IMG/VR virus record: IMGVR_UViG_3300037423_001019
Location: 1 to 44,899 of that record
Source of the DNA: a virus
Taxonomy: Duplodnaviria; Caudoviricetes
DNA: 44,899 nt
Direction: 5' to 3' (one strand)
How positions within the stretch are numbered: position 1 is the stretch's first letter; each line of letters begins with the position of its first letter. Positions 128-44,899 of the stretch are shown piece after piece. Position numbers and translations under genes: made by a program. The notes under the pieces are model-generated. The model saw only the letters and a list, made by a program, of their open reading frames with translations, did not search any database and was not told the origin of the DNA.

Positions 128-435
128 CCAAAAACGATCCACCAGCCTTCGCTTGTGCGCGGCTCATCGAGCTCGCGCTGCAACTCACGCAATGCTTCGA
201 GCGGCGGCGGATTGCGGTCCACGATCAGGCGGAGGTGGCGATGCGAAATATGGCGTGCCGTCTCTCCGGCTGTCCCCGTATTCTGATTCCCGCCGGATAC
301 CGCGCAATCAAGGCGGCGTAACGGGCGGCGGGCTGCCCCGGAGTGGTCATCGCCGGACCAATCGGCGCTCCGGTTCGAATTGCGTGAACTTGCGATAGCG
401 ATGCGATGCTTGCACGAAGACGCGAAGCTAGTCAT
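70..435 (-). CDS. Hypothetical early protein with C-terminal transmembrane helix; true start uncertain and probably downstream
   Basis: Hydrophobic C-terminus WWIVFGAISCLAWLAFFFLMGWLS; stop overlaps ATG of next gene (ATGA). Confidence 0.5.
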   Translation of the reverse strand: MTSFASSCKHRIAIASSRNSNRSADWSGDDHSGAARRPLRRLDCAVSGGNQNTGTAGETARHISHRHLRLIVDRNPPPLEALRELQRELDEPRTSEGWWIVFGAISCLAWLAFFFLMGWLS

Positions 436-997
436 TCCACGTCTCCCCTGCGACGACTCGATGGACGTGCGACTTGCTCACGCCTGTCAGTTCAGCGATC
501 TTCTTTTCCGAGAAGCCGCCGCGATGCATTTCGCGGACGGTCTCAATCACTTTTCCGCTGTACTTGGCGCGACCATTCTGCGACCCGCTTTGGCGAGTGC
601 CGTGCATTGTCTTGTGGCTGCTGTTCTCGGCGCACGTCGTCCATTTCAAGTTCTCGACGCGATTGTCTGATGGATTGCCATTCAGGTGTGCAACCTGAGC
701 GCCCGCAAAGGGCAGTCCGTGGAACGCGCGGCAGACCAAGCGGTGAATGCTGTGGCGGGTCTCGACACTGTTCCGGCTCAGCTTTACGGTTGGATAGCCG
801 CAAGTGTCGGGAACGGGCGAAAGCTCGCGCATCCGGCGAACGTTCCGCACACGCCCGTCGCTCGAAACGTCGTACAGACCCTCGTAGCCGACGATCTGAC
901 GCCACTCGACCGAAGGGGTCGCAGCGCGGGCCGAAGGCATCGCCCCTAGATCAATACTGAACACCTTACCCTGAGGGTTGCGGACGGGACCGGTCAT
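428..997 (-). CDS. NUMOD4-HNH homing-type endonuclease with C-terminal HTH
   Basis: EWRQIVGYEGLYDVSSDGRVR (NUMOD4); IHRLVCRAFHG...VAHLNGNPSDNRVENLKW (HNH_3). Confidence 0.9.
   Translation of the reverse strand: MTGPVRNPQGKVFSIDLGAMPSARAATPSVEWRQIVGYEGLYDVSSDGRVRNVRRMRELSPVPDTCGYPTVKLSRNSVETRHSIHRLVCRAFHGLPFAGAQVAHLNGNPSDNRVENLKWTTCAENSSHKTMHGTRQSGSQNGRAKYSGKVIETVREMHRGGFSEKKIAELTGVSKSHVHRVVAGETWND
904..945 (+). repeat. Partial (3' half) dispersed hairpin element, copy H
   Basis: GCAGCGCGG-GCCGAAGGC-AT-CGCCC matches the 3' end of the repeat family. Confidence 0.55.
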
Positions 998-2961: not shown

Positions 2962-3122
2962 AAACCCTCGGCCAAGTAGTAGATGAAATCGACCGGCGCG
3001 TTGATCTCTGCACCAGCAACGCCCTCAATCCCGACCGAGATCAGTGGCTACGCAATAGGGATTTGCAGCGCCGGGAAGAGCTTCTCTCGCTGCGCAAGTT
3101 CCTCACGGAGGAGCCCGCATGA
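2958..3122 (+). CDS. Hypothetical 54 aa (MKTLGQVVDEIDRR...)
   Basis: ATGA overlaps at both ends; below the ORF-track cutoff. Confidence 0.65.
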   Translation: MKTLGQVVDEIDRRVDLCTSNALNPDRDQWLRNRDLQRREELLSLRKFLTEEPA

Positions 3123-3211
3123 TCCAACTGGCGGCGTACCTCGCCACTCACCCCCTCCTCTGTCAACTCGCGGTCATTCTGACCAGCATCATCTGCGCGG
3201 CGAGAAGCTAG
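3119..3211 (+). CDS. Hydrophobic 30-aa peptide (MIQLAAYLATHPLLCQLAVILTSIICAARS)
   Basis: GGAGGAG RBS; ATGA coupling. Confidence 0.5.
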   Translation: MIQLAAYLATHPLLCQLAVILTSIICAARS

Positions 3212-3213
3212 CC

Positions 3214-4062
3214 GTGAGCGGGGGGATCGGGCCTAAGCCTCAGAAGGAGTGGCGGACGCTCGTTTGGCTTCCGGGGTATGAAATTTCTGAGGATGGCGAC
3301 ATCTGGAACGGCGTGCGGTTGCTCGGCGGATCGATCATTGACGGCTATCGAGTGGTAAAGCTCACAACGACCTCCGCCGGCAAGCGCATTTACAAAGTTC
3401 ACCGACTAGTTTGCGAAGCGTTTCACGGCCCCCCGTCTCCGCCGCGCGTAGAAGCGGCACATGGCGACGGCGATCGTCTCAACAATCACCAGGCGAACCT
3501 TCGGTGGGCCACTCGCCGTGAAAATCACGCCGACCGCGTGGCCCACGGTACCGACGCGTCCGGAGAACGGAATGGTCGAGCGATCCTGACTTGGGAGAAA
3601 GTCTGCGAAATTCGCGAGAGATTCACCGGATTGCGCGGGGAAAAGGCGGCGCTCGCCCGCGAATATGGCATTTCATATAACGCGATCTCAGACGTTCTGA
3701 GCGCCAAGCGATGGCCGACTAGCAAGTGGTGCACCGGCAAAGAGCCCAAGAAGTCGCGCATCAGTGCTAGGGGGTGCGGCGTCAAGGGGCGCAACTTCGA
3801 GCGGGAGTGCGTGAACAGCGCCCGCGACATGGGGCTGACATGCTCCCGCGTTCCGCTTTCCGGGGCTGGTGAGGAAAAGGGCGACATCCGCCTCATTACC
3901 GGTTTCGGCGATACCCTCAAAGGCGAGGCCAAGCGCCGCAAGAAGCTGGCGGACTGGATCGTCAACGCTCTTGGCGATCACGATTTCCTCATCATGCGCG
4001 AGGACCGCGGCGAAACCTATGTCCTCATTCGGTCCAAGCTCTTCTGGGAGCTGTGCCAATGA
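3214..4062 (+). CDS. HNH endonuclease fused to PD-(D/E)XK Holliday-junction-resolvase-like domain
   Basis: VHRLVCEAFHG..AAHGDGDRLNNHQANLRW, then KGRNFERE..RVPLSGA..GDI..GEAKRRK; GTG start at 3214. Confidence 0.8.
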   Translation: MSGGIGPKPQKEWRTLVWLPGYEISEDGDIWNGVRLLGGSIIDGYRVVKLTTTSAGKRIYKVHRLVCEAFHGPPSPPRVEAAHGDGDRLNNHQANLRWATRRENHADRVAHGTDASGERNGRAILTWEKVCEIRERFTGLRGEKAALAREYGISYNAISDVLSAKRWPTSKWCTGKEPKKSRISARGCGVKGRNFERECVNSARDMGLTCSRVPLSGAGEEKGDIRLITGFGDTLKGEAKRRKKLADWIVNALGDHDFLIMREDRGETYVLIRSKLFWELCQ

Positions 4063-29141: not shown

Positions 29142-31238
29142 ATGACGATCAGCGTCAGGCACTCCAAAGTCTCCGGCGTTCAGGACAGCGGGGACGGAAA
29201 AGTTTCGTCCAACGCATGGAACGATGATCACAACCTTAGTTGTGCCTCCGGGGTTGTGCTGGGGCGGTCGTCGGTCGGAACCGGCCCGGTCGAGGAAATC
29301 CCGATCGCCTCATTGGGAGGGGGTTCGGGAACGATCAGCGCCGCCGACAGGATTGCTCTTGCCGACTCCCCCACGAACACTCCGATCATTCTGACGGAAG
29401 CTGGGCGAGAGGGGATATTCGTTTATTCGAGTGGCGACTTCTCGGACGAGGTGACGGCCGATCCCAATCAGGGGATTTACGTTGCGCCCTCCCTTGACGC
29501 GACCGGCGGTTCGGGAGCGTGGATTCGCAAGTTCGATGGTCCCGCTATTTCGCTGTGGTGGGGTGTTTCGACCGGAGCAACGGCGACGGCGAACGTCGCT
29601 GCGTTCCAGGCCGCGCTCGATACGCTCAAAGCCCTGCATGTCAGCTCGCTCGGCCACAGTGACGGATCGATCGGTCTTCACACTCCGGCTGGCGTTTACC
29701 AGTTTAACGCTTCGCTTACGGTCAACCACGGGCTCGTCATCAGCGGCGACTATACGGGCCAAGGGATCGACGGGACCGATTTCGTCTGGTCCGCCAATTG
29801 CCACGGCTTCAACCAGACAGCGTTCGGGATGGGCGCCACCTTCAAGGGGCTCATGCTCAAAGGCAATTACACTTCGTCCGATGGCACCTATCATGCGATC
29901 AACGCTGGGGCCAAGGGTCAATATATCGACCTCTACACCAAGAATTGGCCCGGCGTCGGCATCTATGGAGACGGGGTAAGCGGCAACTTCAACGGCTCCT
30001 ATTTCCAGAACATCTACGCCGAAGGCTGCCAGTGGACCGTGATGGTCGAGGGCTCCGACGCCAACGGCTGCAAGGGGTACGGCATCGATGCCCTGACCAA
30101 CCGGCGCGGCTGTATCTACGACAAGAGCTTTCTCGGCAATTATTGGTCGGGCGGACTGGTTGAGAGCTGCGGCAACATCTCGGGCTTTCTCTCCCGCTGC
30201 GAGAAGAACGGCCACATCTATGTCGTCGCCTACGGGCAGGAAACATGGTGCTCCACCAATTCGCCCTCCGGGACCACGGCCAGTAATACGGGCTGGCTTT
30301 ATCATTCCGAGGGTTCATCGGGCGCTACACAGCCAACGTGGACGACTGGGCTAACTTGGTATTGGTCCGCCGCGCTCGCCTCTCTCCCCGACAATAACAA
30401 TATGTGGAGCCGGTTTTCGGGCTTCTACATTGAGGGTAATTGCAACCCGATCGTTCTCAGCACGCATTCCATGTTCTTCGCTACCTTTCCGGGTGTGCCT
30501 GTGTGGACGAACCTAGGGGTCCTGCACAGCGGCACGATGACCTCGCAAGGTTCGACCTACATGAACTTTGCGAGCGGGATCAATGCCAACGGTAACATTA
30601 CCGCCACCGCTCAAGGGCCGTGGCCCGGAAGCATTACTGCGGCTGGCGCGATCGCTGCGGGAGCCACCATCACCGCCGCGGCGCAAATCTATTCGACCGG
30701 CGGAGGCTTCCGGGCCCAAGGCTCGCCCTATTCGGGGAGCTATAGCGGCGCAGGGTGCGAGTTCGGCTATTACGCTCCCTATGGGGGCTATCTGCAGGCG
30801 CGCACGCTGCCCGCCGACACAACCCTGCCGTTTAAGATCATCTGTTCCGCGTTCACCATTGCTCCGGGCGCAAGCGGCACACCTTCGGACGCCTTCAGCG
30901 TTAGCACAACCGGGTTTGGCTATCCCACCGGCGTTGGAGGGGCCGTCACTCAGGCTACTAGCAGAACGACCGGCGTAACGCTGAACAAGGTCTGCGGCGC
31001 GATTACCCTGGTATCCGCAGCCGGCTCAACATCGTGGCAATCGTTCACCGTCACCAACAGCACCGTCGCCGCCAACGATACGATCCGCGTCTGCCAGAAA
31101 TCCGGCACCGACAAATATCAGGCGCATGTTACAGCGGTCGCGGCGGGGTCGTTTGAGATCACCTATGCGACGACGGGCGGAACCACGACCGAACAGCCCG
31201 TGTTCAATTTCGCCGTGATCAAAGGCGCAGCATCCTAG
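29142..31238 (+). CDS. Tailspike / receptor-binding protein with beta-helix
   Basis: GSGAWIRKF..NVAAFQAALD..PAGVY; C-terminal AVTQATSRTTGVTLN domain. Confidence 0.8.
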   Translation: MTISVRHSKVSGVQDSGDGKVSSNAWNDDHNLSCASGVVLGRSSVGTGPVEEIPIASLGGGSGTISAADRIALADSPTNTPIILTEAGREGIFVYSSGDFSDEVTADPNQGIYVAPSLDATGGSGAWIRKFDGPAISLWWGVSTGATATANVAAFQAALDTLKALHVSSLGHSDGSIGLHTPAGVYQFNASLTVNHGLVISGDYTGQGIDGTDFVWSANCHGFNQTAFGMGATFKGLMLKGNYTSSDGTYHAINAGAKGQYIDLYTKNWPGVGIYGDGVSGNFNGSYFQNIYAEGCQWTVMVEGSDANGCKGYGIDALTNRRGCIYDKSFLGNYWSGGLVESCGNISGFLSRCEKNGHIYVVAYGQETWCSTNSPSGTTASNTGWLYHSEGSSGATQPTWTTGLTWYWSAALASLPDNNNMWSRFSGFYIEGNCNPIVLSTHSMFFATFPGVPVWTNLGVLHSGTMTSQGSTYMNFASGINANGNITATAQGPWPGSITAAGAIAAGATITAAAQIYSTGGGFRAQGSPYSGSYSGAGCEFGYYAPYGGYLQARTLPADTTLPFKIICSAFTIAPGASGTPSDAFSVSTTGFGYPTGVGGAVTQATSRTTGVTLNKVCGAITLVSAAGSTSWQSFTVTNSTVAANDTIRVCQKSGTDKYQAHVTAVAAGSFEITYATTGGTTTEQPVFNFAVIKGAAS

Positions 31239-32085
31239 CCTGTTCTTCGGTGCAAAGAAGGTTGTTCCAGCTTGCCCCGTGGATATGCTTCAAAGTGTCG
31301 GTCGGGACGATCTTTCGCCCCTCTTCGTCGATATTGAAGCGGAGGTAATCTGGGGCTAATTCCACGATCTCGCGGCCCTGTTTCAGGTGAAGGACTTCGA
31401 CCAGGATCGCCGGTTTGAAGCGGGCGATCGTCTCTTTCATTCCCCGGATGACCGCCGGTTCGTGGGTTTCGACGTCTAGTTTGACCAAATCCACGCGGGG
31501 CCACCCGCGTTCGGCGAGGAATCGGTCAATAGTGATCGTCTCGACGGAATAGGAGTGATCGTGCTGGCCGTGTGCCTCTTCCAGCGAGGCGGCGTAACCT
31601 AGTGGCGCGTCAACATCGAAGAAGGGGGCGGTGCCGCATTTGTCGGACGCGGCGAGTTCGGCCACATCAATCGAATAGCCGTTGAGGGCGATGTTGCCCC
31701 TCAGTCTCTTGGCAATCCGTTTGACAGGCTCGAAAGCGAAGACCGGGGCTGATGGATTCACCGCCCTCGCCATGAGCGCATAGGCTCCGGTGTTCGCGCC
31801 GATATCGAGAATGCCCGACGAGTGAGGGGCAAGGTCACACCATATGCGGGTGGACATTGCCTCCCAGCTCTCGCCCAGTCCGGCCCAGAACAGCTCGTTT
31901 TCGAGAACTTCGTGCCCGGCATTCATCCGAAACATCGGCTTGTCGTCCATGTAAACGGTGAACGGCCCGGCAAAATGAAGGTGCTGATAGACTGATTGCG
32001 GAAGGCCCAGCGGCCTCAGCATCTCGAAGATCGGCCGCTTTGCCGGAACTGCCGAATACGCGGCCTTGAGCGCCGATTTGAGCAT
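31219..32085 (-). CDS. FkbM-family SAM-dependent methyltransferase (moron)
   Basis: LDIGANTGAY; VFAFEP; VDLVKLDVETHEPAVIRG; PAILVEV. Confidence 0.9.
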   Translation of the reverse strand: MLKSALKAAYSAVPAKRPIFEMLRPLGLPQSVYQHLHFAGPFTVYMDDKPMFRMNAGHEVLENELFWAGLGESWEAMSTRIWCDLAPHSSGILDIGANTGAYALMARAVNPSAPVFAFEPVKRIAKRLRGNIALNGYSIDVAELAASDKCGTAPFFDVDAPLGYAASLEEAHGQHDHSYSVETITIDRFLAERGWPRVDLVKLDVETHEPAVIRGMKETIARFKPAILVEVLHLKQGREIVELAPDYLRFNIDEEGRKIVPTDTLKHIHGASWNNLLCTEEQARMLRL

Positions 32086-35929: not shown

Positions 35930-36011
35930 TGGGCGATTGCTTCGCACCGCGCTACTCGCCAGTGGAGCCTTGCTGCGCGTCTCCATCCTTCGGACGAGTA
36001 TCGCTATCGCG
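35930..36011 (-). repeat. Dispersed hairpin element, copy F
   Basis: GCG-A-TACTCG/CGAGTA-G-CGC stem; ends CGCCCA. Confidence 0.85.
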
Positions 36012-36458
36012 AGGCGGGAGAATCGGCGTCCACAGCTCCGGTGTCCCGCGGGGGTAGCACCGAAAGCTACCGAACTGAGCCTGCCATCCTCGCCCTTTCC
36101 GATAGCGCGTAGGGTACCATCCCCCGCAAAGCCTTTGCCGCTTCGATTGCCACCCAATTGTCATGTGCCGCCAGAAGGCCAGCACAAACTCGTCAATGGG
36201 AGGGGTAACGTGCGGCATGAAATAGGCGAGATGCGTTCCGGCAAAAGCCCCGGCAACCAATTCGGCCTTAGCGCGTCCATTCTTTCGCGCCTCCGTTTGG
36301 GCGATCTCTCGCACGCGCGGCGCAATGTGCGCGGGAATGTGCTCGCCATAGATCAGGCAATGCCCGTCAGGCACGCCGAGCCTGCGCAACTGGGCGCGCG
36401 ACAACGCCTCCTTCCGCTCACTGCTTAGCGGTCGGTACTGATAGCGCGGATCATTCAT
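35952..36458 (-). CDS. Hypothetical protein; C-terminus encoded by repeat F
   Basis: Start reassigned to MNDPRYQY. Confidence 0.6.
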   Translation of the reverse strand: MNDPRYQYRPLSSERKEALSRAQLRRLGVPDGHCLIYGEHIPAHIAPRVREIAQTEARKNGRAKAELVAGAFAGTHLAYFMPHVTPPIDEFVLAFWRHMTIGWQSKRQRLCGGWYPTRYRKGRGWQAQFGSFRCYPRGTPELWTPILPPRDSDTRPKDGDAQQGSTGE

Positions 36459-36559
36459 TGCGTACACGGCAGAATCCCTACGCCGGATCGAAGCGCGAAG
36501 CGCCAAGACACCGTAGAGTGGCTTGGCCCGCAGGGCGAGAGCCGGATAACGTCCATGAT

Positions 36560-37057
36560 CTATCCAGCATCCCGAGGATCGGTGATTGGTGAGCCGCCTT
36601 CGATAACGGCGAGAGCGCGGTGAAAGTCGCCAGCAACGATCTTTGAAAGCGACAAGTCCACCTGAGGATCGGTACAAAGGCCGACCTCCGTTTCGCTGGC
36701 GACACCGAGCCAGTTCTTAGCTTCCTCCGCGAACGGCTTCAGCGCCTCCCTGTAGCGCTCCAGCTCGATGGAGTTGGAGAGGAACTGTTCGAGCAAGTAT
36801 GGGGCAGCAGCGATCAACTGAGCGTTAGCCTCAACCTCGCAACGGTCGCCGTCACTGTGAACGATAGCGCTTGGCGGGAACATCGAATTGCGATCCGTCA
36901 GCATCGCGAAGGTCGTCTCAGGCTTGCCGAGCATATCGACGACATGCTTCCTGTTCTTGTCGCCGTTCCAGATACCGACTCTCCACGGCGCAGGCGTATG
37001 TCCTTTGCACCGCTCGATCAGCTCTTGTGCTGGGGTGTTGGGTGAGGCTGTGGTCAT
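36560..37057 (-). CDS. Hypothetical phage protein (HTPxPW / NAxLIAAAP family)
   Basis: Motifs shared with 44408-44845. Confidence 0.75.
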   Translation of the reverse strand: MTTASPNTPAQELIERCKGHTPAPWRVGIWNGDKNRKHVVDMLGKPETTFAMLTDRNSMFPPSAIVHSDGDRCEVEANAQLIAAAPYLLEQFLSNSIELERYREALKPFAEEAKNWLGVASETEVGLCTDPQVDLSLSKIVAGDFHRALAVIEGGSPITDPRDAG

Positions 37058-37671
37058 TGGGCGTCTCCAGCTTCGCTGACCGCGCTCTCGTCTTCGACGG
37101 AGCCTAAAGTCTCCGCCCTTCGGGCTTCGATCGCTGACGCGGAATCGTCGCCCAGCAGCCTTTCGCGTATCTCCCCCGGCGTCATCTTACTTAGATCAAC
37201 ACCGTGACCGCCTGACGCCGCCTTGGCTTCAAGGCGGTCTAACACAGCACCCTCCGGCACCGCCTCTCCATCGGAAGCGACCGGAGACACTTTTGGCAGG
37301 GCGCGGCTGTGACCGTAGAGCGCCATAGCCGCGATCCCGACTGCCTCACCCTCGTCGAGGCCGGTGATCTCCATCAGGGCGTTCAGATAGAGATTCTCCC
37401 TCGTCATAACGCGCTCAAGATCGTGCTGTATCGCGGCCAATTCGCTCTCTTCTGCGGCCAACGCCGCTTGGCGTCGGCATTTTGCTATAAATGGCAGCAG
37501 CACGCGCACGGCTTCGACGGCCTCTTCCGGTAGGCCGTCATCGCTCAGCAAATCGACGAGTTGGTATTCGATCGGTTTCGGGGGTGGCGCAGGCGGCGCG
37601 GGCGGATAATAGGCTTTTGGTGGGGGGCTGTAGTAATTGTTGCGCCGCCCGCTTCCCTTACCGCCCATCAT
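37054..37671 (-). CDS. Hypothetical protein; C-terminus encoded by repeat E
   Basis: AGGAGG RBS; ends SASAIEARRAETLGSVEDESAVSEAGDAQ. Confidence 0.7.
   Translation of the reverse strand: MMGGKGSGRRNNYYSPPPKAYYPPAPPAPPPKPIEYQLVDLLSDDGLPEEAVEAVRVLLPFIAKCRRQAALAAEESELAAIQHDLERVMTRENLYLNALMEITGLDEGEAVGIAAMALYGHSRALPKVSPVASDGEAVPEGAVLDRLEAKAASGGHGVDLSKMTPGEIRERLLGDDSASAIEARRAETLGSVEDESAVSEAGDAQ
37058..37142 (-). repeat. Dispersed hairpin element, copy E
   Basis: CCCGAAGGG, GGAGAC..GGCTCC, GTCGAAGAC, AGCGAAGCT, CGCCCA. Confidence 0.85.
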
Positions 37672-37770
37672 TGCCTCCTACGCTATCTAGAAATATCGAC
37701 CACGCATCGTTCGGTTCGTTTCCATGATGTCCCGCGAGCCATCCCGCCATGAAGGCAGCGCGCAACGCGT

Positions 37771-37859
37771 CCGCGTTAGGGACACTCACCCGAGAGGGCG
37801 GAGACGGTGCAACTCGACTCCGTTCATGAGTGTCCCGGTTTCGCGAAGCGAAGCGCCCA
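37771..37859 (+). repeat. Dispersed hairpin element, copy B
   Basis: GGGACACTCA/TGAGTGTCCC stem; ends CGCCCA. Confidence 0.85.
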
Positions 37860-37897
37860 TATCCTGTTCGTCACTCATTATCCGGTGCTCCCTTCGG

Positions 37898-38140
37898 TCA
37901 AGGTTGGCGCGACATTCCTGGCAATTGGCATGGGAAGCTCCCGTCGCAATCGGGGCACATGCGAAACGGCTCTGGCGCGCGAGGACATGTTGGCGGCTCG
38001 ATTTCCAAGCTGGCGAGCATCCTTATTGTGTCGGCACATTCGCGAAGAACCGAGCGCACCTTCGGATCAGGCTCGGCGCCTGTTCGCGCTTCCCATGTGT
38101 CGGCCAGTTCATTTGCTTGATATTTGCTAATCCCCGTCAT
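37898..38140 (-). CDS. Small Cys-rich hypothetical protein
   Basis: AAGGGAG RBS; CPDCDGSFPC. Confidence 0.65.
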   Translation of the reverse strand: MTGISKYQANELADTWEARTGAEPDPKVRSVLRECADTIRMLASLEIEPPTCPRAPEPFRMCPDCDGSFPCQLPGMSRQP

Positions 38141-38559
38141 TCAGGTGCTCCCTTCGGTGGTTCGGGTGAGGTGGTTAGAGCGGCGCGGGCGGTCCCGAGC
38201 GTTGCTGCGACGATGTCGCAGAGCCAATTTGGGATCGGTAGCCCGTCACGCTTAAGCTCGTCGTATTTCAGCCATGACGCTGGCGCTCCCGCCCTCGCAA
38301 CCCGCTCCACCATATCTCCTGAGACTGGCGGGGTGGCACGGAGCACTTCGAGCCAGCGCTTGAGTTGCCCGACCGATGGCCAGTACGGAGGCGCGTTTTC
38401 GTTGGCGAGCATGATATGCGTGTCTGGGGTCGTTTCCAGGCCCTCGTCATCCCGCTCGCGCGTCACCCACTTGAGCCAATATTCGATCACGTCGCCAATG
38501 GCCTGCAGCGAACGCTCGCGCTCATCCGCCTTCAGCTCTTCCGAAACACTGTCTGTCAC
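38137..38559 (-). CDS. Hypothetical protein
   Basis: GTGA coupling with upstream gene. Confidence 0.6.
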   Translation of the reverse strand: MTDSVSEELKADERERSLQAIGDVIEYWLKWVTRERDDEGLETTPDTHIMLANENAPPYWPSVGQLKRWLEVLRATPPVSGDMVERVARAGAPASWLKYDELKRDGLPIPNWLCDIVAATLGTARAALTTSPEPPKGAPE

Positions 38560-38810
38560 TGCTGTGATCCTGGATTGGGCGTCTCCCCGTTGGGGGCCGC
38601 GCGGGGTGAACAAGTCCAAGTCGTAGAGGTGTAAACAGCAACGTCGAACGTCAGCCCGCAGTCGTCGCAGGTCTCTTCCGTGTACCTAGCCTCGTCATAG
38701 TAAAAGGCTTCGTCAGCAGTGTATTGCAGGCCGCAGTATGGACATTTCGGCCCCTCGTACTCGTAGGTTTCCTCGGCCACGCCCCCACTCTCCCCACTAT
38801 TGGATATCAT
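38556..38810 (-). CDS. Zn-ribbon hypothetical protein
   Basis: CPYC..CDDC; GAGGA RBS. Confidence 0.7.
   Translation of the reverse strand: MISNSGESGGVAEETYEYEGPKCPYCGLQYTADEAFYYDEARYTEETCDDCGLTFDVAVYTSTTWTCSPRAAPNGETPNPGSQQ
38576..38602 (-). repeat. Partial (3' end) dispersed hairpin element, copy I
   Basis: GCGCGG-CCCCCAACGGGG-AGA-CGCCCA. Confidence 0.45.
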
Positions 38811-38841
38811 TGTCCTCTAGTCCTTTGCTGAAGGTAGGATC

Positions 38842-38930
38842 TGGGCGCAGCCCCTGACGGGACCGGGCTACTCGTGCTTCGCATGGAGCCGCTGCGCGTC
38901 TCCACCATTCGGCGAGTATCCCTTGCGCGG
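38842..38930 (-). repeat. Dispersed hairpin element, copy G (beside attP)
   Basis: GGG-A-TACTCG/CGAGTA-G-CCC stem; ends CGCCCA. Confidence 0.85.
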
Positions 38931-39020
38931 TTAGCACTCAGGCACATAAGCCCTTGAAAGATCACGTGCGGAACAGATGGGGAAACTAGCGAACTATCGC
39001 GGAAATCAGCCCGCGGAAGC

Positions 39021-39060
39021 GGATTTGCAGTCCTCTGCGTAACCACTCCGCCATCGGGCC
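39021..39060 (-). mobile_element. attP: attP core = 5' 40 nt of tRNA-Cys(GCA)
   Basis: GGCCCGATGGCGGAGTGGTTACGCAGAGGACTGCAAATCC; about 55 bp from the int stop; TTAGCAST arm-like repeats at 38931, 39064 and 39088. Confidence 0.85.
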
Positions 39061-39114
39061 GTTTTAGCACTGCCAATCCTGTGTGATTTAGCAGTTTCTC
39101 GGTTCGTTCACGGT

Positions 39115-40116
39115 TCATCCTCGTAGCTCCTGACGACGCATTGCGCCCTCCGAAGCCCGTCTCTGAGCCATGTAGCGGTGAGCCATCTGATAGGTGCGGT
39201 GCCCGAGAACCGCAACCGCTTCCGTAAGCGTGCATCCGGCTTCGTCCAGCCTGGCCGCCGCCGCATATCGCAGTCCGTGGATGCTCCGGTCGCGCGGGAA
39301 GCCGTCCATTCCCTCGATCTGCCGGCGAATGGCCTGGCTCAGCGAATTGGCAGTGAACGGTCGCCCTTTGGCGTTGCGAGCGATCGGTCCTCCGAACGCC
39401 GTCTTGATGGATGACAGGTGCGACCGCAGAACCTTGTGGCACGCAATGTCCAGCGGTTCGCCTGTCTTGGATTGCCGGACGCGAACGAATGCTCCCTGAT
39501 AATCAGCCCACGTCATCCGAACTACATCCTCGCGCCGCTGGCCGGTGCATAGGGCGAGCAGGACAGGCGTTTGGAGCCATGTCGGAGCTTCATTCAGGAA
39601 GCGGGCGATTTCCTCTTCAGACCACGGCGTGATCGCCTTCTGGCGCACCTTCAGCCGCCTGATCGATGCAGCGGGGTTGTGGCCGCCCTCGACCAATCCT
39701 TCTTCCTGAGCCCAGCTGTAGAGCCTGGAAACCATTTGCCGCAGCTTGTGTGCCTTTCGAGGGGTGGCGGCGTGGTCGTCGCGGACCTGCTTAATCATCC
39801 TGCTGGTGGTGAGCGCGAAAGGCTGCTCTCCAAGTTCTTGAACAATCAGATCCAGCGTCTTGTCGTAATCGAGGCGGGTGAGCGGCCGCAGGGCGTTGAA
39901 CTCGGCGCTCTTGCGGTAGCGAGAAATAAGCCACGCGAAGCTCTCGCGATCAGGCTCAGGCGCTTTCCGTTTGGAGTGCGCCAGCAGTTCGCCGTAGCGG
40001 GCGTGGAACGCAGGATCGCCCGGCCTGCCCGGCAGAGCGGCCTTCAACTCGCCGCGTCTGAAGCGCCAGTATTTGCCGCCGATGACATACGTGAAGGGAA
40101 GGCGTGTTTCAGTCAT
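39115..40116 (-). CDS. int: Tyrosine integrase
   Basis: TGQR, QSKTG, HGLR, LGH, HRY catalytic residues; start MTETRLP. Confidence 0.95.
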   Translation of the reverse strand: MTETRLPFTYVIGGKYWRFRRGELKAALPGRPGDPAFHARYGELLAHSKRKAPEPDRESFAWLISRYRKSAEFNALRPLTRLDYDKTLDLIVQELGEQPFALTTSRMIKQVRDDHAATPRKAHKLRQMVSRLYSWAQEEGLVEGGHNPAASIRRLKVRQKAITPWSEEEIARFLNEAPTWLQTPVLLALCTGQRREDVVRMTWADYQGAFVRVRQSKTGEPLDIACHKVLRSHLSSIKTAFGGPIARNAKGRPFTANSLSQAIRRQIEGMDGFPRDRSIHGLRYAAAARLDEAGCTLTEAVAVLGHRTYQMAHRYMAQRRASEGAMRRQELRG

Positions 40117-40567
40117 TTGGCGGCAACGGCAAAGGCATGTAGTGCGTCGGCACGAAGTCAATTTCGTCCTTGCCCCACATTTCGCTATCGCTCGACAGCT
40201 CGTCAGTGAACTCCCAATCAAACCACCACTGCGGGCGGTCATACTCTTCATATTTCCCGCCCATGAGTATCGGGCCATCATCCGTTAGCGTGTAGGTCGG
40301 AGGTTCGATCTGTTTGACGGGGCGTCCAACGCGATCGCTCACGGTCGCAACCGCTACCTCTTTCCCGTCTGTCACCAGCACCGTGGCATCGCGGCTATAC
40401 CCCTCCGCATAAGCCTTGAAGGGCATTGACTCGATGGGCCTCCAACTGCCCCCCTTGGCGCGGTCCTCGGCGACGACCTCCTCCAGCTTGCGCTCCTTTG
40501 CGCGACGCTCGGCGTACTCGCGCTCAGCCCTCGCCTTGGCTTCGGGCGACCTTAAATCCTGCATCAT
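40109..40567 (-). CDS. Hypothetical (WRPIES..PTHYMPLP, DUF551-like) between xis and int
   Basis: GAGGAGG RBS; recognisable motif. Confidence 0.7.
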   Translation of the reverse strand: MMQDLRSPEAKARAEREYAERRAKERKLEEVVAEDRAKGGSWRPIESMPFKAYAEGYSRDATVLVTDGKEVAVATVSDRVGRPVKQIEPPTYTLTDDGPILMGGKYEEYDRPQWWFDWEFTDELSSDSEMWGKDEIDFVPTHYMPLPLPPND

Positions 40568-40821
40568 GCTCGCCTCCTCTTCTCCAGAAACCGGCGCTCG
40601 ATCTCCGCCGCCTCCCGACGCTGTTCTAGCGCGGTCAGCGGTTGCCCGCCAAGCCGATCCGCCCATCTGTCCAGGTCAATCCGATCGTATAGCCGGCGCT
40701 TGCCGTAAGACTTCGGGGCTGGCCCGTTCTCGCGCAGCGTCGTCGCGCTCAGCCCGAGATAGGCGGAAGCGAGATCAACACCCATAAGGCGTGGCCAGTT
40801 GGGAAGGGCGGAGCGGTTCAT
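40564..40821 (-). CDS. xis: Excisionase-like winged HTH protein
   Basis: WPRLMGVDLASAYLGLSATTL..RRLYDRIDLDRWAD. Confidence 0.75.
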   Translation of the reverse strand: MNRSALPNWPRLMGVDLASAYLGLSATTLRENGPAPKSYGKRRLYDRIDLDRWADRLGGQPLTALEQRREAAEIERRFLEKRRRA

Positions 40822-41165
40822 CGAAGCTTCCGCAACGCCTCCATTAAGTGTTCGGCGGCATGGTATTGAGCAGAGTGGATGGTGCTCATAATTGAGCATT
40901 CGCGCGAAAGGGCCATATTCTCATCGGTGAACTCGCCACCGCGCAGAAGAGGGTCCATCAGAATGCCGTCACCACATGCTTCCATGTTTGTTTCGCCGTA
41001 GAGTTCGATAACCGCTAATGCGTCATCCAGCGCTTTGTGGTATCCGCGCCGATAGTCGCCATCTCCGCGCGAGGGATTGAAGCGGGAACCGGCGAGACTG
41101 CGCAGCAGGCTCGATCCGAAGGACGAAAGCCCGGTCCGAAGGACGCGCCCAATCACCTCCACCAC
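40818..41165 (-). CDS. Hypothetical protein; N-terminus encoded by repeat C (antisense)
   Basis: GAGGA RBS; ATGA coupling to xis. Confidence 0.6.
   Translation of the reverse strand: MVEVIGRVLRTGLSSFGSSLLRSLAGSRFNPSRGDGDYRRGYHKALDDALAVIELYGETNMEACGDGILMDPLLRGGEFTDENMALSRECSIMSTIHSAQYHAAEHLMEALRKLR
41065..41151 (+). repeat. Dispersed hairpin element, copy C
   Basis: CGAGAC..GGCTCG; two TCCGAAGGA hairpins; CGCCCA. Confidence 0.85.
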
Positions 41166-41365
41166 ATCCTCATTTTGTCTGCTAACGGCTTGGCAAATGC
41201 GCGCGTTGCTTGACTGGCTGGATCGTAATACGCCTCCGTCCAGAGGGCGCCGTAAACTTCGGACAGAAGCTGGCGAGCCTCATCGTCAACGGGCCGCTCG
41301 GTTGCGGGGATATAGCGTTCACGATCTATGAACACCGTAGAGTATTTGCGCACTTCGCCCGTCAT
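41153..41365 (-). CDS. Hypothetical protein
   Basis: ATGA coupling. Confidence 0.6.
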   Translation of the reverse strand: MTGEVRKYSTVFIDRERYIPATERPVDDEARQLLSEVYGALWTEAYYDPASQATRAFAKPLADKMRMWWR

Positions 41366-41520
41366 AGAACCACATCCCCTTCGCGCTTAATTGTTGGCTC
41401 GAAGCGTACCGGAGCGCGCAACGCGGGATTCCTCGTCCTCGCAATGAAATCACGGCTACCGAATACCCTCTCTGTTTCCTCTTCAGTAATGAGGTGGAGC
41501 TTTGTGGCGGTGCGTTTCAT
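41362..41520 (-). CDS. Hypothetical 52 aa
   Basis: GAGGG RBS; ATGA coupling. Confidence 0.5.
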   Translation of the reverse strand: MKRTATKLHLITEEETERVFGSRDFIARTRNPALRAPVRFEPTIKREGDVVL

Positions 41521-41527
41521 GCTGCCC

Positions 41528-41680
41528 TCACTCTGCGTTCAGCGTTCGCATGGCGGCGATGAATCCGAGCAGGCCGATTGGAATTGCTAGAAAGACGCTA
41601 TCCAGCTTGCCCGCGAGGAACGCGCACAGGCCATAAGCGACCCACAACGCCAGGGTCACATATTCTCGGTTTCTGTTCAT
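41528..41680 (-). CDS. Small two-TM membrane protein
   Basis: TAATG coupling to ninB. Confidence 0.6.
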   Translation of the reverse strand: MNRNREYVTLALWVAYGLCAFLAGKLDSVFLAIPIGLLGFIAAMRTLNAE

Positions 41681-42069
41681 TATGCTGCCCTCGCTTGATC
41701 TGACCAAACCACATTGTTTCTCCCGCCCCACTCGAACACGATATCAAGCAAGGCGCTGAACTGGGTTTTGCTGAGCTCCGACGTTCGCTGGCCCACGGGG
41801 AACATGCCGTTGCCGTCGAGCTCCGGCAGGAACCGTGTTTCATTCCTCAGCGCGTGAAGGAACCGCAGCTTCCACTCTTCCTTTGACCATTGCTCCGCGC
41901 CGGGAACCTGGAAGCGGATGTCATCAATGGCCGCATGGAGAATCTTGTTCTGCTCGTCGGTGCGGTTCGGTTCCCTTACCTCGCACACATAGCCGTCAGG
42001 AGCCTCGGAAATGAGGCGCTGGGCCTTTCCACGAGCATATGGCGAGGTAAGATAGACCTTTGCGCTCAT
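41680..42069 (-). CDS. ninB: NinB/Orf recombination mediator
   Basis: RTDEQNKILHA..DI..RTSELSKTQFSALLD..V.WSD. Confidence 0.85.
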   Translation of the reverse strand: MSAKVYLTSPYARGKAQRLISEAPDGYVCEVREPNRTDEQNKILHAAIDDIRFQVPGAEQWSKEEWKLRFLHALRNETRFLPELDGNGMFPVGQRTSELSKTQFSALLDIVFEWGGRNNVVWSDQARAA

Positions 42070-42401
42070 GCCAGCTCTCCCTTGTCGCCTTGCCACAGGA
42101 GCCAGTAGGCGGCCGCAACTTGCTGCGCGTCCTCACGGGTCAGGCCGATCGCCGACCAACCCTTGTCGGTATGGAGTTTATGATGCGCCGAGCAGAGCGG
42201 AATTGCGTTGTGATCGGCTGCCTTTGTCCCCATGCCCTTTGAAGCTGGGTCTGGCGTGTGCGCCGCCTCCATCTTGCCGCCGCAGAGGCCGTCTCCCGCC
42301 TTGTAGCACTCGCGCCCCCGCAGCCATTTGTGGTAGGCCGTAGCCACCTTCCACGCTGGGCGCGGTGCGTTACGCTTGCGAGGGCGAACGTCGATGCGCA
42401 T
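42066..42401 (-). CDS. HNHc-type nuclease (DUF968-like)
   Basis: WLRGREC..C..EAAH..GMGTKAAD..AIPLCSAHH. Confidence 0.75.
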   Translation of the reverse strand: MRIDVRPRKRNAPRPAWKVATAYHKWLRGRECYKAGDGLCGGKMEAAHTPDPASKGMGTKAADHNAIPLCSAHHKLHTDKGWSAIGLTREDAQQVAAAYWLLWQGDKGELA

Positions 42402-42655
42402 CAGCGATAGCGCGGATCGTCGTCGTCATAGGCGGGCGCCGGCTGCCGCTGCTGGCTCTGCTGCCGTGTCGGTTCCTGGCCCTTCGGATCGAATAGATTG
42501 GCCACCACGCGGCCCTCGCTGTCGGCGATCGGGAGCGCGTCGAACACCAGCTGAATGTTGCCGTTGTCGTTGAACCACGCGGTCCCGATGCGCGTCCAGA
42601 ACGTTTTCCCGTCCTTGCTCTGACGCGGCGTGCAAATATCTTTCCTGCTGCTCAT
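42401..42655 (-). CDS. Putative small ssDNA-binding protein
   Basis: KTFWTRIGTAW..FDALP; acidic tail; adjacent to erf. Confidence 0.6.
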   Translation of the reverse strand: MSSRKDICTPRQSKDGKTFWTRIGTAWFNDNGNIQLVFDALPIADSEGRVVANLFDPKGQEPTRQQSQQRQPAPAYDDDDPRYR

Positions 42656-43443
42656 TATGCGTTCTCCAGTTGCTCAAAGTCTCGGCGTTTGCGGGCGATC
42701 ACCGCCTCAAGACCCTCGAAGACTTCGCCAGTGTCTTTGCTCACCCCGCCGTCCCACCATGAGGGCAGCGCCTTCATGATCTGATTGACGAGCTGAACGT
42801 TGGTTTTGTCCACCAGCAGGCATTCGAGCTCGTCGCTGTCGCCGCACGCCTCGACATCGCGCCAGAACGCGCGGCCCATATCCTTGAGTACGGTGCGGTT
42901 CTTCGCCGGACCCTGCGGAAATGGATCGTCCTTGTGGGCTGCCAAATGCTCCTTGCGCCCGTTGCCGTTGGTTGCCGGCCGATAGTCAGCCCGATCGTCC
43001 TGCACCGTGTCAGGATCGTCGCCCGTCTCCAGCCCGAGCACCTTCAGCAAGGCATATTTGACGCCGTAGCTGATTGCCTTGCCGGGGCCCTTGTCCTGGG
43101 AATCCACGCCGTAGCCCATCGTCGCAACGTCGATGTAGTCGGTGCGATCGTCGATGTTCTCGAAGCGGACGGTGAACACGAGCTCGGTGCGGTTGCCGTT
43201 CTGCACCGGTTGGAAGTCGCGCGGGTAATAGACCACGCCATGCTTGTGGAGCAGCGGGCGAACCTTGGCAGTCACCGCGTCATGCGACACGATGGAATAG
43301 TTCATGCCCTGCTTCTTTTCCTTTTGCACATAGTCCACTTCGCCCATGACGGCGGCGATGCGCTGCGCGATGTTGCGCTTCGCGTCGATCTCATCCAGCG
43401 CGTCCTGGACAGTCGGCTCGCGTAACTTGGCTTGTGTCGCCAT
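42655..43443 (-). CDS. erf: ERF-family single-strand annealing protein
   Basis: GYGVDSQDKGPGKAISYGVKYALLKVLGLETGDDPD; GGAGG RBS. Confidence 0.9.
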   Translation of the reverse strand: MATQAKLREPTVQDALDEIDAKRNIAQRIAAVMGEVDYVQKEKKQGMNYSIVSHDAVTAKVRPLLHKHGVVYYPRDFQPVQNGNRTELVFTVRFENIDDRTDYIDVATMGYGVDSQDKGPGKAISYGVKYALLKVLGLETGDDPDTVQDDRADYRPATNGNGRKEHLAAHKDDPFPQGPAKNRTVLKDMGRAFWRDVEACGDSDELECLLVDKTNVQLVNQIMKALPSWWDGGVSKDTGEVFEGLEAVIARKRRDFEQLENA

Positions 43444-43658
43444 TATGCTGTCCTCCGGATTAGGGCGGGCAGGATGCCGCCGACGAGGGAGCACAAGAGC
43501 ACCCACGCCATAATCGAATACCCGTATGCGATCATCGCTCGGCCGAATTGCCAGTCCGCGAACATCCATCGGCCGGGCTGCGCGATGAAGGTGAACGCAA
43601 GCATCGAATGCAGGCCAATTTGGCTTCCGATGCCCACGCCTAGTCCAGACATTTTCAT
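43443..43658 (-). CDS. Small membrane protein
   Basis: Two hydrophobic segments; coupled on both sides. Confidence 0.6.
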   Translation of the reverse strand: MKMSGLGVGIGSQIGLHSMLAFTFIAQPGRWMFADWQFGRAMIAYGYSIMAWVLLCSLVGGILPALIRRTA

Positions 43659-43864
43659 GAATTGCTGGCGGGCCGCTTGTTAAGCTCGACACCCGCCCTC
43701 CCTGGATTGCGATAGTTGACACTCGCCCGAAGGGCCGAGACTACAGGCTCGGGCGAAGCCGAGTGGCGACGGTGCGCGTCAGCGCAATCGCCCAAAAGGC
43801 CGTCGATCACCGACAAAAAGTCCCGATCCCTTTTTATCTTCAACGCTCTTTCTGTTTCGGTCAT
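43655..43864 (-). CDS. Hypothetical; much of it encoded by repeat D (antisense)
   Basis: GGAG RBS; ATGA coupling. Confidence 0.5.
   Translation of the reverse strand: MTETERALKIKRDRDFLSVIDGLLGDCADAHRRHSASPEPVVSALRASVNYRNPGRAGVELNKRPASNS
43708..43794 (+). repeat. Dispersed hairpin element, copy D
   Basis: GTTG-A-CACTCG/CGAGTG-G-CGAC stem; ends CGCCCA. Confidence 0.85.
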
Positions 43865-44127
43865 GCTGCGTCTCCGCGTTGTGAAACGGCGTGACGCTCG
43901 TCAGCGCGCCGCAGGGCACAATCCAAGGCGAACAGCGTCACCTCGCCGTCCAAGCACGCCAAGCGCTCCAAATGCTGATAGATCGCGCTGACAGTGCCCC
44001 GGTGCAGCGGAATCATCTGCGTCCCATCTAGGCAGGAGAGCTCTCCGCCGAGCACTAGCGGCCTCAGTCGGTCGGCCAGCATTCCGGATGAAATGATAGC
44101 GTCCGTTTTGTCTCGCGAGCGCGTCAT
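43861..44127 (-). CDS. Hypothetical protein
   Basis: ATGA coupling; start MTRSRDK. Confidence 0.6.
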   Translation of the reverse strand: MTRSRDKTDAIISSGMLADRLRPLVLGGELSCLDGTQMIPLHRGTVSAIYQHLERLACLDGEVTLFALDCALRRADERHAVSQRGDAA

Positions 44128-44411
44128 GCCGCATCTCGTTTCAGGAACGGATCGCCACGGCACTCAGTCAGCTGATACTTCGCCGCAATCTCATCGAGCC
44201 TTTGCGTATAGCGAGCACGGCATTCATCATCGTGAGCCTTCTGCTCAGAATATCCACCGACACGCTTACGCATGGCTTCTTCGCATTCACGCCATGCCTG
44301 AGATCGTTCCCATGCTTCATCGCGGGACATGCGGGGTGGGCCGAACAGAGCATCGAGGAACTCTTTGCCCGTCATGCTGTCCGCAGGAGCGGTTATGAGG
44401 CGATCGCTCAT
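44124..44411 (-). CDS. Hypothetical protein
   Basis: GGAGA RBS; ATGA coupling. Confidence 0.7.
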   Translation of the reverse strand: MSDRLITAPADSMTGKEFLDALFGPPRMSRDEAWERSQAWRECEEAMRKRVGGYSEQKAHDDECRARYTQRLDEIAAKYQLTECRGDPFLKRDAA

Positions 44412-44845
44412 GCCGTCTCTCCGCGAGCCTTGGCGAGAGCTCGTTCCGCCGGTTGCGTAGTGAAGCTGTCGGGGCTGTAGTTACCCGCCACTACATCGCG
44501 CATTAGTGCGGCCAGTTCGCTCAGAGTCTCATAAAGCTCCGGCGCTGCTGCGATTAGGCGGGCGTTGGCCAACTCACGAGCAATGGCGCTCGCCGTGTAG
44601 TCTTTGCAGTCCGTGGCGTAGAGAATGTCGTCAAAGCCAGCGCGCCCCTCACCAGAGCGGAGCTTTCCGACGTAGATGCTGCCGCCGAAATGCTCTACGC
44701 CCCAAGGCCCCGGAGTCCACGCTGCGTTAGGGATGCCACTCCGCGAAGACGCGTCAGCGGCTGAGGCCGAAGGCTGGCAGCCCGACGGCGAAGCCGGAAC
44801 GCCCATATCCTGTCCCCCACCCATGCTGGACTGTGAGTTGGTCAT
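44408..44845 (-). CDS. Hypothetical (WTPGPW / NARLIAAAP family); N-terminus encoded by repeat A (antisense)
   Basis: Motifs; ATGA coupling. Confidence 0.75.
   Translation of the reverse strand: MTNSQSSMGGGQDMGVPASPSGCQPSASAADASSRSGIPNAAWTPGPWGVEHFGGSIYVGKLRSGEGRAGFDDILYATDCKDYTASAIARELANARLIAAAPELYETLSELAALMRDVVAGNYSPDSFTTQPAERALAKARGETA
44722..44805 (+). repeat. Dispersed hairpin element, copy A
   Basis: GGG-A-TGCCA/TGGCA-G-CCC stem; GCCGAAGGC, GGCGAAGCC; CGCCCA. Confidence 0.8.
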
Positions 44846-44899
44846 GACAGCCAACCCATGAGGAAGAAGAACGCGAGCCACGCCAAGCAGGAGATCGCC
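44773..44899. repeat. Terminal direct repeat, copy 2
   Basis: Identical to 1-127. Confidence 0.95.

Follow-up and report, generated by a model that had tools for sequence, protein, structure and literature searches.

This report concerns an element of about 85 nucleotides that occurs repeatedly in the DNA of a tailed virus (Duplodnaviria; Caudoviricetes), IMG/VR record IMGVR_UViG_3300037423_001019, whose entire 44,899-nucleotide sequence is called the window here. The element has a conserved fold that appears to act as single-stranded DNA, and relatives of it lie on the single-stranded DNA strand of microviruses and of F-type plasmids. Given this placement, we think it probable that the element acts as a single-strand initiation (ssi) signal for host priming. 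Its sequence and architecture also indicate that it forms one family with Flavo-1, a motif that Rfam files as a Bacteroidota RNA. Neither this kinship nor the priming-type placement was foreseen in the preliminary description of the window, which was made from sequence alone. Initiation signals as a kind and the Flavo-1 part of the sequence were already known. The union of the two, the full fold, the host range and the paired in-frame cassettes described below were not found in the consulted portions of the literature (including PMC2864571, PMC9723704, PMC5737381, PMC3201870, PMC9849209, PMC9865509, PMC7690428, PMC3167613 and PMC11541004), and an earlier mention as an ssi signal may exist in other sources.

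Copies were located with a sequence descriptor and then with a covariance model, termed R1, built from 55 copies. The descriptor scan of the window returned the seven full copies of the preliminary description (A to G), all within 2 nucleotides of the coordinates given there, and no others; a stricter descriptor recovered five of the seven and made one match across 20 Markov-simulated genomes. R1 assigns the seven copies, all of which are in its training set, scores of 44 to 82 bits. It also reveals an eighth copy, J, which is outside the training set and had been overlooked (E 3e-6); the runner-up reaches only 13.5 bits. Helix P4 of R1 is offset by one column (32% paired), which makes the pair counts for P4 uninformative, and detection still worked. 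Two partial copies had also been proposed. One of these, I, is indeed a 3' remnant, whereas the other, H, proved to be a whole copy split by an endonuclease gene.

Fold statistics are based on the 115 copies that could be parsed among 156 unique phage copies. Read on the functional strand, the element consists of GCGNN (the 5' side of helix P1), an A, helix P2, a variable top, the P2 partner, a linker, hairpin P6, NNCGC and an unpaired CC(A). At the base of a three-way junction there is thus a 5-bp outer stem, P1 (GCGNN/NNCGC), which the preliminary description missed and beyond which CC(A) remains unpaired. P2 comprises 3 bp, an A-G mismatch and then further pairs or a tandem G-A motif; the linker after its partner reads G-G/A-N. 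The variable top holds two or three hairpins, and in the window copies it is a four-way junction of GNA hairpins, which sets them apart from the Flavo-1 model. A fixed CGCCCA end had been proposed, but the last three letters are CCA in only 78 of the 115 copies. G occupies flank position -1 in just 1% of copies, a rarity by which the CC stays unpaired. The 3' end bears a likeness to MOBQ nick sites and to the CCA of tRNAs, but a cut beside CCA is a misfit, as a Fibrobacter P6 variant travels with the 3' flank.

Covariation exceeds chance, as the preliminary description had proposed for the stems that it recognized. In a 55-row alignment, 184 cells are changed on both sides, versus 68 after shuffling. 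The middle P2 pair swaps between C-G and G-C (28 and 26 of 55 rows), and four variants are seen at the pair that follows T-A. Both position 4 and position 5 of P1 form Watson-Crick pairs in 112 of 115 copies (mean 19.5 and maximum 33 in 2,000 shuffles), with seven common combinations and G-T pairs nearly absent, and the A-G mismatch is present in 107 of 115.

The proposal that the element works at the level of DNA is supported by its loops, its folding energies and its orientation. GNA triloops make up 346 of 809 loops on the functional strand, but number 6 on the opposite strand and 99 of 2,356 window-wide; the c-GNA-g loop is very stable in DNA (PMC3201870, in part). GNRA loops account for 43 of the 809. 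AAC and AAA loops, which are sheared-pair loops of DNA, occur too. The z-score computed with DNA energies was below that computed with RNA energies in all eight stretches, although it fell below -2 in B, D and G alone. Finally, both orientations of the element occur within one operon.

An Rfam scan, which the preliminary description had proposed, returned no Flavo-1 (RF01705) match in the window at the gathering threshold (42 bits) or at E values up to 10. Nevertheless, the element is kin to this described motif, to which the consulted literature assigns no function. Certain copies form a bridge: a Paracoccaceae copy (29.9 bits) and a microvirus copy (28.0 bits) match RF01705 below threshold and match R1 as well. 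The basal stem of Flavo-1 (SGAT-NGAAG ... CG-A-AGCSG), with its A-G mismatch and tandem G-A, recurs in the element alignment. The Rfam model, derived from Weinberg 2010 (PMC2864571), spans 76 positions and omits P1, P6 and the tail. In the portion of that paper's supplement examined, however, the Flavo-1 seed rows begin GCGNN-A-GGGA as the element does, and the flanks outside the model go on to a hairpin, then to the complementary side of P1 and to CC(A), in seven of seven rows. The architecture of P1, P6 and CC tail is also complete in Flavo-1 loci L261, L267, L269, L279 and L285. The shared stem and flanking architecture therefore place the phage element and Flavo-1 in a single family that is wider than the Rfam model. 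Fresh Flavo-1 matches were found in 12 of 41 Bacteroidia genomes, and a second subtype, seen for example in genome G116, has a different base (TAG/CTA, GCTCC).

Microvirus genes are carried by 12 of 170 IMG/VR viral loci (11 contigs of six sequence types, which include phiX-like, gokushovirus-like and Bacteroidota-like types). Each microvirus locus has a single element match, that of L525 being weak (14.7 bits). In all 11 contigs, the coding (virion) strand is the one that bears the element. Among GenBank microviruses, it lies on the coding strand in three of four (KT264808, MH572438 and OM869667); MT839809, which fits no assigned virus group, was left out of the strand count. Because microvirus contigs are mutually related, the number of independent cases is nearer 9 of 10. 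The latter (L452, MT839809.1) is a 4-kb unannotated human-gut contig bearing one copy. An alphaproteobacterial copy used as query finds the gokushovirus KT264808, in the spacer between the capsid and pilot genes, and a Bacteroidota-type query matched 2 of 50,697 phage records, both Microviridae. Any microvirus is expected to have a complementary-strand signal (PMC9865509, in part). The phiX174 primosome assembly site (PriA n'-pas) is likewise one structured virion-strand site in a spacer, and in KT264808 and L525 the element sits after the capsid gene, as that site does. The two differ in architecture and show no likeness of sequence or structure by model. GAAGC(GG), a putative PriA motif, is present in both.

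A search of plasmids matched 3,594 of 72,556 records, mostly enterobacterial and 2,718 of them conjugative; the Bacteroidota-type query had no match among plasmids. The IncF leading region of NZ_CP095525 holds three full copies, which run antisense to the genes ssb, psiB and hok and occupy 560-620-bp repeats that contain Frpo. All three share the strand of the listed F ssiD, and placement on the single-stranded DNA strand holds also for the one case in NZ_CP117594. With F ssiD/Frpo the element thus has in common its strand and the leading-region repeats. Judged by eye, however, it begins about 110 nucleotides past the point where the listed ssiD ends, and it is absent from ssiE. It is outside the ssiD and ssiE stretches as listed (D90178.1, D90180.1) and not within the mapped ssiD/Frpo stem-loop. 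Frpo and its role are the subject of PMC9849209, PMC11541004 and PMC7690428, the consulted parts of which do not treat the element. One candidate in Supplementary Table 2 of Samuel 2024, also seen in part, ends inside the element, which is unnamed there.

In loci resembling integrative and conjugative elements, copies run antisense to genes for ArdC (L092, L110), ArdA (L117), DUF736 (L085) and SLT (L074), and often border defence cargo. A gene at L255 is presumably a relaxase gene. At L111 and L124, SRAP (single-stranded DNA abasic-site) genes lie 3' of two chromosomal copies that have differing 5' cargo. The first pattern used on genomes was loose, such that many of its 123 loci are chance matches; the R1 scan covered L066-L128 except L090 and L114.

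The strand bias in two unrelated single-stranded DNA life cycles, together with one copy per microvirus, points to a second-strand initiation signal; a single copy on the virion strand is not predicted by a transposon or by an attC site. On this reading the element is where priming proteins of the host would begin the complementary strand, the candidate enzymes being DnaG acting directly, a PriA primosome or RNA polymerase. The invariant, protected CC after P1 suggests the start point of priming.

In temperate phages and prophages of Alphaproteobacteria, where up to 11 copies occur per locus, the role of the element is likely secondary and partly selfish. Among 97 unique neighbour pairs within 1 kb, 66 are back-to-back, 19 facing and 12 direct (a first set gave 44 back-to-back of 70), although the search patterns favoured one subtype and may have inflated this bias. 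F/J, E/B and G/C are back-to-back pairs in the window. In 25 of 44 pairs, as compared with 5.3% of 2,495 controls, a single open reading frame (ORF) spans both copies, its start lying immediately outside the antisense copy and its stop immediately beyond the sense one; the element copies encode the ends of the protein. Pfam matches were obtained for 7 of 39 cargo proteins: two integrases, a C5 methylase, a uracil glycosylase, Acb3, Fic and DUF1643. The anti-CBASS gene for Acb3 lies between a back-to-back pair at L206:6085-7002.

Junctions, as read from BLAST alignments, support the view that elements mark the borders of mosaic segments and are linked to the exchange of accessory genes. The integrase module bounded by G recurs in L217 and L225, where homology ends at the CCA end of G; the element-free L213 shares cargo, and homology ends at the GCG end of G. 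Element-free homologs retain the first 5-7 letters (GCGCA, GCGAAAT and GCGATA) at three 5' junctions, one being L190 with GCGATA at the junction of copy D, and CGCCCA or CGCCCT at two 3' junctions. The window itself has a GCGAAAT stub at 238-255 where L189 holds a full copy, and this stub could be either a target or a decayed remnant. L203 (PP496355.1) and ON014753.1, labelled as phages of cyanobacterial hosts, have Erf or the element in common with the alphaproteobacterial-type group; the labels may reflect co-cultured bacteria.

Priming could conceivably generate such junctions, a proposal for which the junctions are the evidence and which we advance tentatively. A new strand primed at the CCA end would run through the element, so that its 3' end would read NNCGC and could anneal at GCGNN on another template. 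Back-to-back copies would prime toward each other and so bound a gene module, and an annealing protein such as Erf could use short homology to join the bounded module into another genome. The observed fusions would then be retained because an open frame is selected for. Primed copying would account for junctions without a transposase.

Fibrobacter polysaccharide loci have arrays of same-direction elements with fixed-end cassettes in shuffled order, and homology starts exactly at the element's first G or stops at its 3' end. Fibrobacter loci L239-L258 (genomes G002, G011, G067, G079 and G096) carry a longer variant with an extra 5' hairpin domain, as well as deletion forms joined by short homology. 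Genes within split Fibrobacter elements were suspected from half matches, and none were found among the matches listed.

Several observations weigh against assigning these roles to the element. A copy in the microvirus MG945248 is on the non-coding strand, in a record that is flagged unverified and partial. phiX174 (NC_001422.1), whose priming hairpin is characterized, has no R1 match at E values up to 2. Since the mapped ssiD and ssiE do not include the IncF copies, either these escaped a classical screen for ssi sites or they are inactive as priming sites in Escherichia coli. The 86 scattered copies of mixed orientation in the Bacteroidota genome G116 resemble a selfish repeat more than a needed signal; no empty sites were found for G116, whose relatives are too distant. 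In element-free comparisons, there was no GCG within 3 nucleotides in 13 of 20 cases at the 5' end, and the 3' tail was absent in 21 of 25 at the 3' end; these matches are partly redundant, and the stubs that do occur could be remnants of lost copies. Homologous recombination between copies accounts equally well for some of the swaps.

The preliminary description had favoured a non-autonomous mobile element or a structure-specific recombination site. Such an element would be moved as single-stranded DNA by an HUH or tyrosine enzyme, with the 3' side of P1 guiding it to GCGNN in the manner of IS608. The near-universal pairing of P1, the persistence of GCGNN in some element-free homologs, the separation of shuffled defence cassettes by same-direction arrays in Fibrobacter and the abundance of copies in G116 all agree with this idea, as does the absence of target duplication at the flanks of the 115 parsed phage copies, which HUH elements share. 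Yet none of 14 Y1 transposase genes lies near an element (five genomes searched, four of them element-bearing), and no integrase was recognized by eye beside Fibrobacter arrays among the matches listed. No clean empty site emerged from 434 flank queries, the relatives being mostly 70-90% identical, and no element-free homolog has both flanks cleanly joined. The mobile element also leaves the one virion-strand copy per microvirus unexplained, and plain homologous recombination between 135-nucleotide repeats can produce the Fibrobacter shuffling. We therefore consider this explanation unlikely. The observation that no cognate transposase is visible holds, and homology does break at the element ends, which supports a link to accessory-gene exchange, but an attC-like site is unsupported. 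Integron attC and the DUF1874 motif (PMC5737381, in part) resemble the element in being folded single-stranded DNA between cassettes, and same-direction arrays are likewise seen in Fibrobacter. The element differs in its GCGNN/NNCGC ends, its lack of a fixed GTT/AAC, its branching and its back-to-back arrangement in phages, and integron attC was rejected because the RYYYAAC ... GTTRRRY core sites are missing. IS200/IS605 and REP-RAYT were rejected because no Y1 HUH transposase in the five genomes searched is flanked by the element. REP/REPIN repeats, IS200/IS605 mini-elements, RPE in-frame repeats and T4 PeSL cassettes are multicopy repeats, intergenic or in frame, that lack target duplication and have ties to gene shuffling. 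The element differs from them in having no adjacent Y1 transposase, and none of these groups is known as a single virion-strand site in single-stranded DNA phages.

A different task on incoming single strands, such as nuclease protection, RecA/SOS sensing, SSB loading, an upstream module of Frpo, or packaging, would predict a strand bias identical to that for priming. It would also suit the Frpo-containing repeats of the IncF copies and the neighbouring ArdA, ArdC, PsiB and SSB genes. It seems improbable to us, in that the element is GC-rich with no -10 or -35 boxes by eye, and a priming site is what a microvirus needs, spare sequence being scarce there. The structured RNA implied by the filing of Flavo-1 as a small RNA is the least credible reading of all. 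The element is always mRNA-sense in the IMG/VR microviruses and some loops are GNRA, but within a single operon it runs in either direction, in plasmids it is antisense, GNA triloops predominate and P1 is almost free of G-T pairs. In a Flavobacterium transcriptome, moreover, Flavo-1 matches are sense or antisense and many lie in untranscribed regions (PMC9723704, in part).

Copy H raises the further idea of a homing element, or some other selfish unit, that in its autonomous form encodes a NUMOD4-HNH nickase. The halves of H pair across the insert (P1 GCGAT/ATCGC, P2 GCG-A-TGCGA/TCGCA-G-CGC), and the N-terminus of the HNH protein is a read-through of the 3' part of H. In peptides inspected by eye, the termini of P0002 (87%) and P0003 (65%) read as element halves and that of P0086 as a 3' half, and the copy that L189 holds at the corresponding site is free of HNH. 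However, just 3 of 152 HNH proteins convincingly fit the peptide patterns, the element occurs at 1 of 80 metagenome HNH loci (1.2 kb away), and no HNH gene adjoins the microvirus or IncF copies, all of which makes a homing unit very improbable. H is the sole split copy among the loci compared. Relatives of its region were not found among GenBank phages, nor relatives of its HNH gene among viral contigs. Other palindromic repeats sit inside the apical loop of the element at L282, L285, L299 and L118, so that this loop looks like a tolerant insertion site, and the HNH gene is best read as an invader of it. A second NUMOD4-type HNH gene, at 2983-4062 (+), is fused in frame to a RusA-like resolvase.

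The window represents a circular contig of 44,772 bp, as indicated by a 127-bp terminal repeat (1-127 and 44773-44899), by which positions 1 to 1.7 kb belong to the same early arm. Reading leftward, this arm begins at about 1.7 kb, crosses the join and ends at 35.5 kb. The virus is a temperate tailed phage, with genes for terminase, endolysin, repressor, Erf, NinB and a tyrosine integrase. Positions of the element copies and associated genes are given in Table 1. The terminal repeat duplicates part of copy A at 1-33. The tRNA-like stretch after the integrase, 39007-39060 (-), is likely attP and is conserved among related integrase modules. Two paralogous PHROG 1273 genes, 36560-37057 and 44408-44809, each begin at or next to an element end. 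A ribosome-binding module, GGTGCTCCCTTCGGT, is repeated at 37884-37900 and 38143-38160 between small genes and is a possible shuffle point. A lone reverse-strand gene within the late region, 31219-32085 (-), resembles an FkbM methyltransferase by eye.

Table 1. Element copies and associated genes in the window.
Feature	Position	Strand	Remarks
Copy H	392..946	+	Whole element split by HNH gene; 5' part 392-428, 3' part ~899-946
NUMOD4-HNH endonuclease gene inside H	428..997	-	PHROG 59; Pfam HNH_3/NUMOD4/HTH_7
Copy F	35930..36010	-	60.1 bits
Copy J	36480..36555	+	36.1 bits; variant base, P6 hairpin absent; back-to-back with F
Copy E	37058..37140	-	68.7 bits; codes C-terminus of 205-aa ORF 37054-37671
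Copy B	37773..37859	+	44.3 bits; back-to-back with E around 632 bp
Remnant I	38576..38602	-	8.4 bits; 3' part alone: P2 end, P6, 3' side of P1 (P1'), CCA
Copy G	38842..38928	-	65.7 bits; one end of integrase module
Cargo between G and C	38929..41066	-	tRNA-like stretch, tyrosine integrase, excisionase-like gene
Copy C	41067..41151	+	81.7 bits; back-to-back with G
Erf single-strand annealing gene	42655..43443	-	Pfam ERF, PHROG 155; context, not part of element
Copy D	43709..43794	+	52.3 bits; upstream of Erf annealing gene
Copy A	44724..44805	+	53.2 bits; antisense, supplies N-terminus of PHROG 1273 gene

If the element is an initiation signal, an orphan "RNA" of Rfam would be a DNA replication signal common to Bacteroidota, Fibrobacter, Alpha- and Gammaproteobacteria and their mobile elements. 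It would be a candidate answer to where the second strand starts in microviruses other than phiX, and to how the incoming F strand is converted to duplex in vivo, which is stated to be unresolved for Frpo (PMC7690428, in part). The broadest form of the proposal is speculative, and we regard it as rather doubtful: a single fold would be at once the complementary-strand origin of numerous microviruses, an overlooked priming site of conjugative plasmids by the thousand and a transposase-free selfish element that primes its own duplication and changes template at GCGNN. Back-to-back pairs would make a PCR-like amplicon of any gene between them, and phages exchanging such amplicons would gain novel in-frame proteins as well as cassettes for defence or anti-defence. 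The 85-nucleotide unit is open to direct synthesis and assay. Should priming also underlie the junctions, it would offer a tangible path by which phage mosaics and newly fused proteins arise; among the cargo are a methylase, a uracil glycosylase, an anti-CBASS protein and integrases.

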